Of a DNA stretch of 64,000 nt, positions 43,968-58,055 are shown piece by piece. This stretch comes from a virus. The stretch is from the IMG/VR virus record IMGVR_UViG_2925639251_000002, one strand, 5' to 3'. Each line of letters starts with the position of its first letter. The first letter of the stretch is position 1. The notes beneath the pieces were generated by a model. It was not told the DNA's origin. It saw only the letters and a list, made by a program, of their open reading frames with translations, and did no database searches. Made by a program: the position numbers and the translations under genes.

Positions 43968-44143
43968 CGTATCATAGACGCCTGAAGACGACGGTGTTTA
44001 AAAAGTATAGCGGATATGATTGGACTTACGACGGAATGTTTGAAAAAACAAGAGTGAAAGGCAGTGATAAAAGAAAACGATCGAAACATGAGCGAACAAT
44101 CCGAAAAGTTATGGATAAAAAAGAAATTAGTTATTACTTTTAA
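43964..44143 (+). CDS. Small basic protein (59 aa), not in the ORF track
   Basis: GTGA overlap with upstream stop; MTYHRRLKTTVFKK... Confidence 0.5.
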   Translation: MTYHRRLKTTVFKKYSGYDWTYDGMFEKTRVKGSDKRKRSKHERTIRKVMDKKEISYYF

Positions 44144-44306
44144 ATTAATATAAAATCTGTATTTTAAAGAGAAGGTGCTGCAGTGAAAGAGTCGTTGAAG
44201 AATGATTTTCAAGAGTTTATGAGTATTGCAAAAAGCTTTCTTGCTGTTTCTGGAGCAGTCTTTTGGTTATTGATAATTTCACTTGTTTTTGCTGGGGGCT
44301 ATTAAA

Positions 44307-44495
44307 ATGAATCAATCATATAAAGTTAGTCTAGAAAAATTACCAATTGAAAGCTTAGAGAGACTGAAAACAGACATACAAAATAGAATTAATGATGGAT
44401 TGAGTACCGATAACAATGCATACATAAAAGACCAGAGAAGAAAACTTCAAATCGTTTTAGACGAGCTGATTAGACGAAGTACATTTGTTCACTAA
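44307..44495 (+). CDS. Small phage protein (62 aa)
   Basis: ATG 44307; its stop overlaps the RBS of the following mini-ORF. Confidence 0.6.
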   Translation: MNQSYKVSLEKLPIESLERLKTDIQNRINDGLSTDNNAYIKDQRRKLQIVLDELIRRSTFVH

Positions 44496-44509
44496 AGGAG
44501 GTGAATACA

Positions 44510-44548
44510 ATGCCAGTAGTACTTTATGGATTTGGAAGAGGAGCATAA
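44510..44548 (+). CDS. 12-aa mini-ORF MPVVLYGFGRGA ending in an arbitrium-type hexapeptide, no signal peptide
   Basis: AAAGGAGGTGA RBS (44494-44504), ATG 44510, TAA 44546-44548, followed by a hairpin. Confidence 0.7.
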   Translation: MPVVLYGFGRGA

Positions 44549-44553
44549 AAAGA

Positions 44554-44571
44554 GAGGGGAACGTTCCCCTC
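44554..44571. terminator. Probable bidirectional terminator between the mini-ORF and sspC
   Basis: Perfect palindrome GAGGGGAACGTTCCCCTC; T tract on the minus strand. Confidence 0.75.
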
Positions 44572-44576
44572 ATACA

Positions 44577-44789
44577 TTAATGAAATTGGCCATTCATGCT
44601 TTGTTGAGCTAAGCGAACCAAACGTTTTGTAATTTCTCCACCTACTGAACCGTTTGCTCGGCTAGTTGTCTCAGGCCCTAAGTTCACACCGAACTCAGAA
44701 GCAATTTCATACTTCATTTGTTCAAGGGCACCAGCAGCTTGAGGCACAAGTAATTCATTGCTGTTGTTTGATCTGTTTTGTTGAGCCAT
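44577..44789 (-). CDS. sspC: Alpha/beta-type small acid-soluble spore protein (70 aa)
   Basis: LLVPQA...[11 protein letters not shown]...[16 protein letters not shown]. Confidence 0.92.
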
Positions 44790-44833
44790 ATGATCATCTC
44801 CTAAAGTTGTATGTAAACAAGCTTGTTCAATTG

Positions 44834-44862
44834 TATTGTGTGGAGATGTTTTGAAAATATAC
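44834..44862 (-). promoter_or_regulatory. sigma-G-type promoter of sspC
   Basis: Minus strand GTATA-N17-CACAATA. Confidence 0.7.
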
Positions 44863-44889
44863 ACATTAATTTGAATAGAGGTGATTTAA

Positions 44890-44913
44890 ATGACTATTGG
44901 TCGTGGAGGATGA
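44890..44913 (+). CDS. 7-aa mini-ORF MTIGRGG (arbitrium-type peptide directly after Met)
   Basis: AGAGGTGA RBS (44877-44884), 5-nt spacer, ATG ACT ATT GGT CGT GGA GGA TGA. Confidence 0.65.
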   Translation: MTIGRGG

Positions 44914-44956
44914 ATTAACACACACTTTACCATGGGTTTAGATAGGGGGATACATA

Positions 44957-45292
44957 TTGTCACATTCATTTTCAATAGTTCTTAGCAAGAAGCTTCCCTT
45001 ACGAATGTTGATTAAACGTTGTGAAATCGACTTCAATATACAATTAGATAGACATAAACAAGTAATGGGATTCTCCTCTGGGGTACACGAAGACCTTGGT
45101 TTATTTCTAACTATAAGTTCAAGACAAATTGACTTTCGCTTTTTAAATAGTCAAAAATTCGTGGAAGCTCTCGGAAAAGTTGAGCAATTTATCGAAAAGC
45201 AATTCCATGATGAGACTGTAGGAGTTATTTATCATGACAACATGACAAGATTAAAAGATATTCCTACAATCAAAATTATTAATCTGAGTTAG
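44957..45292 (+). CDS. Hypothetical phage protein
   Basis: 111 aa, TTG after AGGGGG. Confidence 0.6.
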   Translation: MSHSFSIVLSKKLPLRMLIKRCEIDFNIQLDRHKQVMGFSSGVHEDLGLFLTISSRQIDFRFLNSQKFVEALGKVEQFIEKQFHDETVGVIYHDNMTRLKDIPTIKIINLS

Positions 45293-45498
45293 GTAGAGGT
45301 GAGTAAGCTCTAAAAAAAGAAGGTGATTAAGTTAAAAGAGTATACACATGGGTTTTTAAATGGGTTTTTATACGGTTGTATTTTTATACTAGCTTTCCTG
45401 TCTATTACAGTCGTTTTTGTTTTGTGTGTTGCATGCGGCGGCTATTCAATTTAAGGAAAATAAAATTCTAATTTTATTGAGAAGGGAATGACTCCTTT

Positions 45499-45720
45499 AT
45501 GTATGGAGAAGATGTTGAAGTTACACTAGATGGAAACATTAAGGTGAAAGTGTTTGTATTTTGCCTGCCTACCACATGTAAAGAGGAAAAAGAAAAGAGA
45601 GCACTATTAACTCTAAAAAATCTAATAGATAAAAGGTTGAAGAATGAGGATCTAAAATATTTGGATGTGCAAAGTGATTTTGTTTTAATTCCTAAAATGA
45701 TTGAAAACGGGGAGTTTTAA
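45499..45720 (+). CDS. Hypothetical phage protein (yot block)
   Basis: 73 aa ORF. Confidence 0.55.
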   Translation: MYGEDVEVTLDGNIKVKVFVFCLPTTCKEEKEKRALLTLKNLIDKRLKNEDLKYLDVQSDFVLIPKMIENGEF

Positions 45721-56710: not shown

Positions 56711-57904
56711 ATGGTGATTATGATGAGTGAAAGTATAGTAGATGTTAGAAATCATTTAAAGCGCATAATAGAGTCTTCAGATGAAAAACAGAAAGAGATT
56801 GCCGATAAAATTGGAATTAGTGCTGCCCACTTAAGTAAGTTTTTGAATGGGCAAGAAATTTCACTTTGGATGGTATTGGAGATAATACGTTACCTCGATA
56901 AGGATAACGAGGTCGAAATCATGCGGCAATGCTGCCTTGAGGCGACAAAGAAAAATATAAAAACTGCTTTTGAATATGCTCATTCTAAAAGTTTGGACTC
57001 AGTCACTTGTATATTGCTCAATAAAACCTTGGACGGAAATAACAGAGAGTTAAAGGAATGGGCAATCGTCTATCAATGGCAACTATGGTCAAAATACAAT
57101 CGTGTTTATAGCGAGGTTGATTACCTCGAAATGTTGAAAAAGCTGCAACCCAATTCTCATGACTTAAAAACACTTTTGCAAATTCTAGAGATGCTTTGCT
57201 TTTATTACAGTGAGAAGTATGATTTATCTCTACACTACATAAAAAAAATTCACAACATGCTTCCTGAAATTAAGGATCCATTTATTAAAAAAGCATTTTT
57301 AAGCCGTACAGACGAAGCTCTAGCAAATATGTATCTGAAGTTTGAAAACAATATAGATAAATCCAGAGGATCTGCTGAAAAGCTCATCGAAAGAAATTTT
57401 AGCGTGAATTCGGTGACGAATGGCTATTTTATATTGGGATTATCATATTTGTTTGAATCATACGAGAAAACATCAAGCTTTTTTAAAAAAGGGATTCAAT
57501 TAAACAACACGAAAGAAAGATATTTTGTAGCTAATGACTTAAGAGAACAGTTAGCAATTACTAACCTTTTTTGGAACAAACCAGTACCAAAAGAATATAT
57601 AGTGACTGACTTTATTAAAGCAGTTGTCAATAAAGCTAATCTGAAATATTTTTATGATGACAAATACTACTCAGCTTTAGCTTTTTATTTTGACGGAAGA
57701 AGGGAAGGGAGTCAGGAAAAGCTGCTGTTATCGTTACATGTTTTTTGTGAAAAGAAGGATTACTTTAGAGCAAACCTACCAAAAATGGAGTTGCTAAAAC
57801 TAGGAGTTGATTATAATATATTAAAAAGGGAGGTGAAAATTGGTGAAAAAGACAATTATAGGAGTTTTGATTACTTTAGCAATAGCTCTAGCATTTGTTT
57901 TTAG
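56711..57904 (+). CDS. aimR: AimR-like arbitrium receptor (HTH + TPR)
   Basis: N-terminal XRE HTH; LKEWAIVY and TPR-like helices; followed by a pro-peptide gene. Confidence 0.85.
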   Translation: MVIMMSESIVDVRNHLKRIIESSDEKQKEIADKIGISAAHLSKFLNGQEISLWMVLEIIRYLDKDNEVEIMRQCCLEATKKNIKTAFEYAHSKSLDSVTCILLNKTLDGNNRELKEWAIVYQWQLWSKYNRVYSEVDYLEMLKKLQPNSHDLKTLLQILEMLCFYYSEKYDLSLHYIKKIHNMLPEIKDPFIKKAFLSRTDEALANMYLKFENNIDKSRGSAEKLIERNFSVNSVTNGYFILGLSYLFESYEKTSSFFKKGIQLNNTKERYFVANDLREQLAITNLFWNKPVPKEYIVTDFIKAVVNKANLKYFYDDKYYSALAFYFDGRREGSQEKLLLSLHVFCEKKDYFRANLPKMELLKLGVDYNILKREVKIGEKDNYRSFDYFSNSSSICF

Positions 57905-58055
57905 TGCAAATAGTGCGGATGCTCCTGATTCAAAAAGCAATACAGTAATTCCATCAACAGGAACTAAACAACTGGCTGATCCTCCAGTTGGCATGAGCTT
58001 TAAATTAACGAAAGAAACACCAAAACCTAGAACAGAAAAAGCTATATTTTATTAA
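57843..58055 (+). CDS. aimP: AimP-like arbitrium pro-peptide; candidate mature peptide DPPVGM (57978-57995)
   Basis: GTG after GGGAGGTGA; MKK + hydrophobic signal peptide; QLADPPVGM. Confidence 0.8.
   Translation: MKKTIIGVLITLAIALAFVFSANSADAPDSKSNTVIPSTGTKQLADPPVGMSFKLTKETPKPRTEKAIFY

Follow-up and report, generated by a model that had tools for sequence, protein, structure and literature searches.

A seven-codon mini-gene beside sspC of an SPbeta-like prophage is a putative leaderless mimic of a rival phage's arbitrium signal

The window, a 64,000-nucleotide stretch of DNA that forms part of an SPbeta-like (Spbetavirus) prophage, carries a mini-gene encoding MTIGRGG that, judging from its sequence, is probably a translated, leaderless mimic of the arbitrium signal of a rival phage. 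The hexapeptide following its initiator Met and that of its alternative allele MSIGHGA are identical to the C-terminal hexapeptides of two distinct AimPs whose genes adjoin AimR genes. The chance of a random hexapeptide matching any of, for instance, a few hundred natural signals is ~1e-5 or less. We infer translation of the mini-gene, removal of Met, binding to AimR, the biological effect and the timing of expression.

The MTIGRGG mini-gene and its surroundings

A ribosome-binding site, a 5-nt spacer and an MTIGRGG reading frame closed by a stop codon had been proposed for positions 44877-44913 in the first-pass annotation, and all three are present (Table 1). The codons are ATG ACT ATT GGT CGT GGA GGA TGA, and the spacer between the Shine-Dalgarno (SD) sequence and ATG is TTTAA. 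The predicted duplex of the 16S rRNA 3′ end with the 17 nt upstream of this ATG (-16.0 kcal/mol) ranks second when ATG ORFs of 4-16 codons from either strand of the window are compared, behind that of the mini-gene at 44510-44548 (-17.9 kcal/mol). The SD is kept as G(A/G)GG(T/G)GATTT in 18 related loci. About 90 SD-led mini-ORFs occur in the window, and when ORFs of any length were searched in six frames for the ending [RHKV]-G-[AG]-stop, only MTIGRGG and the 44510-44548 mini-gene were found. The two had been described as sharing GRG(A/G)-stop at a distance of 340 bp; the shared ending stands, and the distance is corrected to 380 bp from start to start, or 341 bp from the stop of the first to the ATG of the second. 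ORF inspection ruled out MTIGRGG as a piece of a longer ORF on either strand.

The mini-gene consists of no more than a Met codon, six further codons and a stop, Thr being residue 2 (Ser in the alternative allele). As is established enzymology, an initiator Met can be removed when Thr or Ser comes next. If functional, the mini-gene would, with its 7 codons, be among the smallest functional genes known. MTIGRGG-type mini-genes are missing from every annotation inspected and are invisible to gene callers.

Table 1. Coordinates of the features discussed (positions without a prefix refer to the window; L numbers denote individual loci).
Feature	Position	Strand	Basis or remark
SD AGAGGTGA of the MTIGRGG mini-gene	44877..44884	+	read from sequence
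MTIGRGG mini-gene, 7 codons and stop	44890..44913	+	read from sequence
GFGRGA mini-gene (SD and ORF)	44494..44548	+	
SD AAAGGAGGTGA of the GFGRGA mini-gene	44494-44504	+	
ORF of the GFGRGA mini-gene, 12 codons, MPVVLYGFGRGA and stop	44510-44548	+	
sspC, alpha/beta-type small acid-soluble spore protein, between both mini-genes	44577..44789	-	translation; homologue annotated in phi3T, Goe12, Goe14, SPBc2
sspC intrinsic terminator, hairpin then T-run on the minus strand	44552..44571	-	terminator scan
Presumed sspC promoter, forespore sigma-G type (inferred)	44834..44862	-	sequence and conserved block
111-aa gene, TTG start, own SD GGGGGA	44957..45292	+	first gene downstream of the MTIGRGG mini-gene
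SASRGA mini-gene MVQTLHSASRGA, 12 codons, behind AAAGGAGG	L133:249-287 = SPBc2 NC_001884 ~129848-129886		unannotated
TIGRGG precursor genes	L110:9153-9296; also in L111, L090, L094		47 aa
SIGHGA precursor genes	L128:9588-9713; L130:3416-3541		41 aa
GFGRGA precursor genes beside AimR	L048:3440-3574; L044:9198-9320		in 28-95-kb proviruses

The region 44100-45500 is ~96% identical to phi3T, Goe12, Goe13 and Goe14 over part of its length. By synteny with phi3T, the SPbeta-type aimR of this prophage lies outside the window, ~54 kb upstream of sspC. The SD of the MTIGRGG mini-gene starts ~15 nt past the presumed sspC promoter on the opposite strand. The hairpin of the sspC terminator has no T-run on the plus strand, which makes read-through toward the mini-gene plausible. 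The plus-strand stretch from sspC to the mini-gene yielded no sigma-A-like site, so that expression of the mini-gene would need either read-through across the antisense sspC or a phage-specific promoter. A related allele of the stretch 44300-44921 is present in contigs of four RNA-seq libraries, although contigs cannot prove transcription; four raw-read RNA runs with the same species label are from material without the prophage, and their reads map to the conserved SASP segment only.

Downstream, the 111-aa gene begins 43 nt after the MTIGRGG stop behind a separate SD, and its product has no Pfam match. Relative to phi3T and Goe12, ~430 bp are inserted at 44875-45318, comprising the mini-gene and the 111-aa ORF, and the junctions of this insertion coincide with ribosome-binding-site-like sequences. 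The 43-aa ORF that follows it (45323-45454) is also found in phi3T, where it is unannotated. A further, unrelated arbitrium-like module lies at 56711-58055, in which a 397-aa AimR-like ORF overlaps a 71-aa signal-peptide ORF; the latter has an internal DPPVGM and matches neither mini-gene peptide.

AimP precursors with the same hexapeptides

TIGRGG precursors were sought by a back-translated scan of IMG/VR for TIGRGG-TAA, in which precursors ending in TGA or TAG may be missed. Four Bacillus proviruses of 40-42 kb were found to encode a 47-aa AimP-type precursor ending in KVA-TIGRGG-stop. Its N-terminus resembles a secretion signal by eye, and its gene directly follows an AimR-family gene (PF22871, E 5e-67) whose product is 37% identical to phi3T AimR. 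The first-pass annotation had linked TIGRG(G)-type peptides to a non-SPbeta arbitrium clade and had made its reading depend on the existence of an aimP with this peptide; the four loci (L110, L111, L090 and L094) bear out both points. The allele SIGHGA likewise has a natural counterpart, a 41-aa precursor ending in QVA-SIGHGA and encoded directly after another AimR-family gene (PF22871, E 1e-73). The Val-Ala preceding the hexapeptide is common to the precursors of phi3T (TVA-SAIRGA) and of the GFGRGA type (HVA-GFGRGA). The three target receptor types are 33-41% identical among themselves and to phi3T AimR.

Such systems were rare in the collections searched, with four loci for TIGRGG and two for SIGHGA. 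An AimR-based search revealed no TIGRGG loci beyond these four, and a protein-database search with the TIGRGG precursor returned its own cluster only. Isolated GenBank phages contained no TIGRGG- or SIGHGA-type arbitrium module and none of the three target receptor types, and 49 species-representative genomes of the genus contained neither the mini-gene nor a SIGHGA-ending AimP. A chance ORF was ruled out by the exact matches of both alleles, with the ~90 SD-led mini-ORFs of the window taken into account; the earlier judgement that a chance hit is unlikely is thereby strengthened, since the peptide and its alternative allele both match real AimP C-termini.

AimP genes are defined by a position immediately downstream of aimR, by a secretion signal and pro-region within a product of ~40-50 aa, and by a hexapeptide placed directly before the stop codon. 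The canonical AimPs of the TIGRGG and SIGHGA types, found in Bacillus proviruses of ~26-42 kb, are 41-47 aa long. By eye, their N-terminus is hydrophobic and resembles a secretion signal; Val-Ala closes their pro-region, and their genes lie directly after aimR. The mini-gene shares with them the last six residues and the direct stop, for TIGRGG as for the allele SIGHGA. In contrast, it has 7 codons (real precursors have 40-47 aa) without signal or pro-region, its neighbours are sspC and the 111-aa ORF, and the carrier's own aimR is, by synteny with phi3T, ~50 kb away. Comparison of the mini-gene regions with the real aimP loci revealed no nucleotide homology beyond chance words, and Ser is encoded by TCN in the mini-gene but by AGC in the real SIGHGA gene; a relic of an aimP 3′ end was ruled out on these two grounds. 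Cognate AimR genes (PF22871) are present in phages of the same hosts (genomes 2799112227, 2867919565 and 2912874417). By position and architecture the mini-gene is not a member of the AimP gene family, yet it carries the defining output of that family, the mature hexapeptide.

The peptide might instead serve its carrier, by tuning the carrier's own AimR or an RRNPP-type receptor such as Rap, or as a host-directed signal. It has the shape xxx(R/H)G(G/A) of the SPbeta clade, and a 2026 preprint reports a response of B. subtilis to SAIRGA. However, the AimPs of the carriers are different peptides, namely SAIRGA (L028 and L020), SIIRGA (L035), GMPRGA (L010 and L029) and GIVRGA (Goe11 and Goe14; for Goe11 this is its published arbitrium peptide, PMC13220667), and the AimRs of SPbeta, phi3T and Goe11 do not respond to the non-cognate SASRGA or GFGRGA (PMC13220667). 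Use by the carrier, which would also fail to explain why each of the two alleles exactly equals a foreign signal, is in our view unlikely.

Conservation and alleles at the sspC slot

The survey took in ~40 sspC loci, drawn from SPbeta-like phages in GenBank and from phages and proviruses in IMG/VR; 19 of them carry the mini-gene at the equivalent position beside the sspC promoter. The allele MTIGRGG is found in the window, L010 and L028, and MSIGHGA in 11 loci including phage Goe11. Four loci (L005, L007, L008 and L009), including SPbetaL5, have an allele one residue shorter, MTIGRG-stop, which ends in GGC TGA or GGC TAA, and L083 has the frameshifted allele MTIGRGDELKPT. The stop, TGA or TAA, stays at the same codon within an allele. 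Codon changes within an allele are synonymous (Ser TCT/TCA/TCG, Gly GGT/GGC/GGA, Ile ATT/ATC), and the amino-acid differences between MTIGRGG and MSIGHGA are confined to a concerted T/S, R/H and G/A switch. Codon positions 1 and 2 show a diversity of 0.10, third positions one of 0.29 and the flanking sequence 0.28-0.35. Of 11 changes inferred, 7 are synonymous (binomial p 0.028). Substitutions of this pattern look like coding-sequence evolution. The mini-gene was found on three upstream haplotypes and ahead of at least five unrelated downstream genes, indicating that it is not merely hitchhiking with one neighbour. Conservation at this locus, on which the first-pass reading had also been made to depend, is therefore seen in many SPbeta-like phages, with synonymous variation.

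The slot could alternatively be a non-functional fossil or the scar of a recombination junction, the RBS and ATG of which once opened another gene at a mosaic boundary. The mini-gene is absent from about half of the SPbeta-like loci surveyed, among them phi3T, Goe12, Goe14 and SPbeta itself, where homology to the window stops exactly at the RBS and another gene begins. The truncated and frameshifted alleles fit such a scar as well and imply that the mini-gene is dispensable or often lost. Against this, three upstream and several downstream haplotypes share the SD, the peptide and the place of the stop codon, third codon positions account for the variation within alleles, and the DNA bears no homology to aimP loci; chance identity to real signals would be needed twice at one locus. 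We regard a scar as quite improbable.

The mini-gene lies shortly ahead of the next plus-strand gene behind a strong SD, and short leader ORFs are common in Firmicutes, so a uORF or leader peptide that regulates or couples the next gene, with an incidental likeness to arbitrium, has to be weighed too. A leader peptide is coupled to a fixed downstream gene, whereas here at least five unrelated genes follow among the relatives, the gap in the window is 43 nt, and RNA folding around the mini-gene is no better than that of shuffled sequence (z 0.46). Per ORF, the probability that two alleles exactly match two real signals incidentally is on the order of 1e-5 or below; two further signals are matched by the sibling mini-genes. 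A leader function is accordingly very improbable.

Sibling mini-genes and the proposed action on rival phages

The reading of MTIGRGG as a mimic of a rival's signal draws further weight from its neighbours. The 12-codon neighbour at 44510-44548 has GFGRGA as its C-terminus. Six major families of arbitrium peptides are recognised, GFGRGA among them (PMC6458997; PMC13220667), and real GFGRGA precursors are encoded beside AimR (Table 1). The peptide of the 12-codon ORF is kept across ~17 loci, with four synonymous changes in L029 and two synonymous changes plus one missense change in L035. Goe14 carries this mini-gene, phi3T and Goe12 have it with a 1-nt deletion, and a decayed copy is found in the SPbeta/Goe11 lineage. 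GFGRGA is preceded by six extra N-terminal residues that are themselves conserved, which suggests that this mini-gene may need processing or act differently from the 7-codon gene. Variants of the GFGRGA slot, FGFGKGV and YGFRKGA, occur in related loci (L015, L021, L028, L030 and L031), and in L030 and L031 the slot sequence is fused to the C-terminus of the upstream gene.

Scanning the collected loci for other known signals brought to light a third mini-gene, ending in SASRGA, a major arbitrium signal family (PMC6458997). It lies between yosZ and sspC, just upstream of the GFGRGA slot, in SPBc2, Goe11, L004, L011, L019 and L026 (as MVQTLYSASRGA in L011), and is absent from the window. In this phage group, leaderless mini-genes within ~600 bp around sspC thus carry four foreign signals. 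There is about an even chance that these mini-genes form an sspC-flanking arsenal, in which each member is the exact signal of a rival family (SASRGA, GFGRGA and TIGRGG/SIGHGA), is retargeted by point mutations as the rival community changes, and locks rivals in lysogeny. If true, viruses would here be engaged in a receptor-ligand arms race with genes of 7 to 12 codons as the weapons.

For the MTIGRGG mini-gene we propose the following course. Ribosomes would initiate at the ATG at 44890 on the strong SD and make fMet-Thr-Ile-Gly-Arg-Gly-Gly, from which deformylase and methionine aminopeptidase would strip Met to leave TIGRGG; processing of a free 7-mer is assumed here, and Met removal is expected from the permissive Thr at the second position. 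TIGRGG would arise in the cytoplasm alongside AimR, where the hexapeptide is assumed to survive, and such cytoplasmic synthesis would dispense with secretion, extracellular processing and Opp import. AimR is cytoplasmic and binds the mature hexapeptide at nanomolar affinity, which stops aimX activation, and addition of the cognate peptide blocks mitomycin-C prophage induction (PMC13220667). When a rival with a TIGRGG-type AimR shares the cell or enters it, TIGRGG would bind to that receptor and aimX would not be activated; falsely informed that hosts are exhausted, the rival would be driven into lysogeny or fail to be induced. On joint induction the SPbeta-like phage may meet weaker competition for the cell, the lysogen may be spared lysis by incoming rivals, or both parties may gain. 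Lysis of the carrier could also release the peptide onto neighbouring cells. Related phages would have retargeted the locus to a second real signal, SIGHGA, by three amino-acid changes. Published data show that crosstalk favours lysogeny of incoming phages (PMC13220667) and that emitting a rival's signal raises the fitness of the emitter (bioRxiv 10.1101/2025.10.13.681967). As the receptors of SPbeta, phi3T and Goe11 are unaffected by SASRGA and GFGRGA, carriers should be immune to their own forgeries.

The first-pass annotation had proposed an intracellular decoy addressing a foreign arbitrium receptor. The foreign address is supported, with binding itself predicted: SIGHGA is also the product of a foreign AimP, the carriers' own AimPs differ, and hosts are shared. 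The term decoy does not hold, since a peptide identical to the natural agonist is expected to act by agonist mimicry rather than by titration.

Relation to known systems and co-residence with target phages

In arbitrium crosstalk as described (Gallego-del-Sol et al., Cell 2026, PMC13220667; Manley et al., bioRxiv 10.1101/2025.10.13.681967), the peptide of one phage drives the AimR of another to lysogeny, and the emitter can gain. There each phage signals with the full-length secreted AimP of its own arbitrium system, whose resemblance to that of the rival is fortuitous, whereas the mini-gene is a dedicated leaderless gene with the rival's exact signal, would act inside the producing cell, and belongs to a locus at which several such mini-genes are stacked. 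LuxI/LuxR prophages of Phaeobacter (PMC13345283) follow a like logic, in that a co-resident rival prophage is denied its lytic cycle through its own lysogeny signal, but they use acyl-homoserine lactones, belong to another phylum with another genetic basis, and involve no ribosomally made mimic. The erm and cat leader peptides and the lambda bar minigenes resemble the mini-gene in having few codons behind a good SD and in releasing a free oligopeptide, but they act in cis on the ribosome or mRNA; the mini-gene, unlike such leaders, matches the ligand of a trans-acting receptor and has no conserved downstream gene.

Neither TIGRGG nor SIGHGA is mentioned in the searchable literature. We found no description of leaderless, orphan or mimic arbitrium mini-genes in the searchable literature. 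Arbitrium is a model for virus communication, and its crosstalk and manipulation have been reported only in 2025-2026, always through a phage's own secreted AimP. If correct, the proposed mimicry would represent a new class of inter-phage weapon, a molecular forgery acting intracellularly, and would bear on the diversification of arbitrium peptides, on the formation and stability of polylysogens and on hidden functional micro-ORFs in the "intergenic" DNA of phages. It is directly testable in the laboratory phages Goe11 (MSIGHGA and SASRGA), Goe14 (GFGRGA) and SPbeta (SASRGA).

Carriers and targets were found together in several hosts, where the same IMG identifier is read, from the IMG/VR naming scheme, as the same genome. 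Genome 2799112227 contains an SPbeta-like element with both mini-genes (L007) together with a GFGRGA-type (L076) and a TIGRGG-type (L111) provirus; the corresponding combinations are L008 and L110 in genome 2867919565, L064 and L048 in 2513237190, and L055 and L128 in 2912874417. Arbitrium phages commonly form polylysogens in B. subtilis.

Besides agonist mimicry, the product might act as an antagonist, if a retained fMet or Met, or the shorter TIGRG, occupied the rival AimR without closing it and so left the rival deaf to its own signal and inclined toward lysis; processing of so short a product is an assumption, and the sibling 12-mers have their N-terminal extensions, but the Thr or Ser at position 2 satisfies the requirement for efficient removal of Met and the exact length of Met plus six residues suggests a mature agonist as the product, leaving only a slight probability for antagonism. 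The MTIGRG-stop allele is found in two genomes that also hold a real TIGRGG prophage (IMG 2799112227 and 2867919565; n=2, anecdotal), and it might represent an antagonist, or function may have been lost where both prophages reside together.
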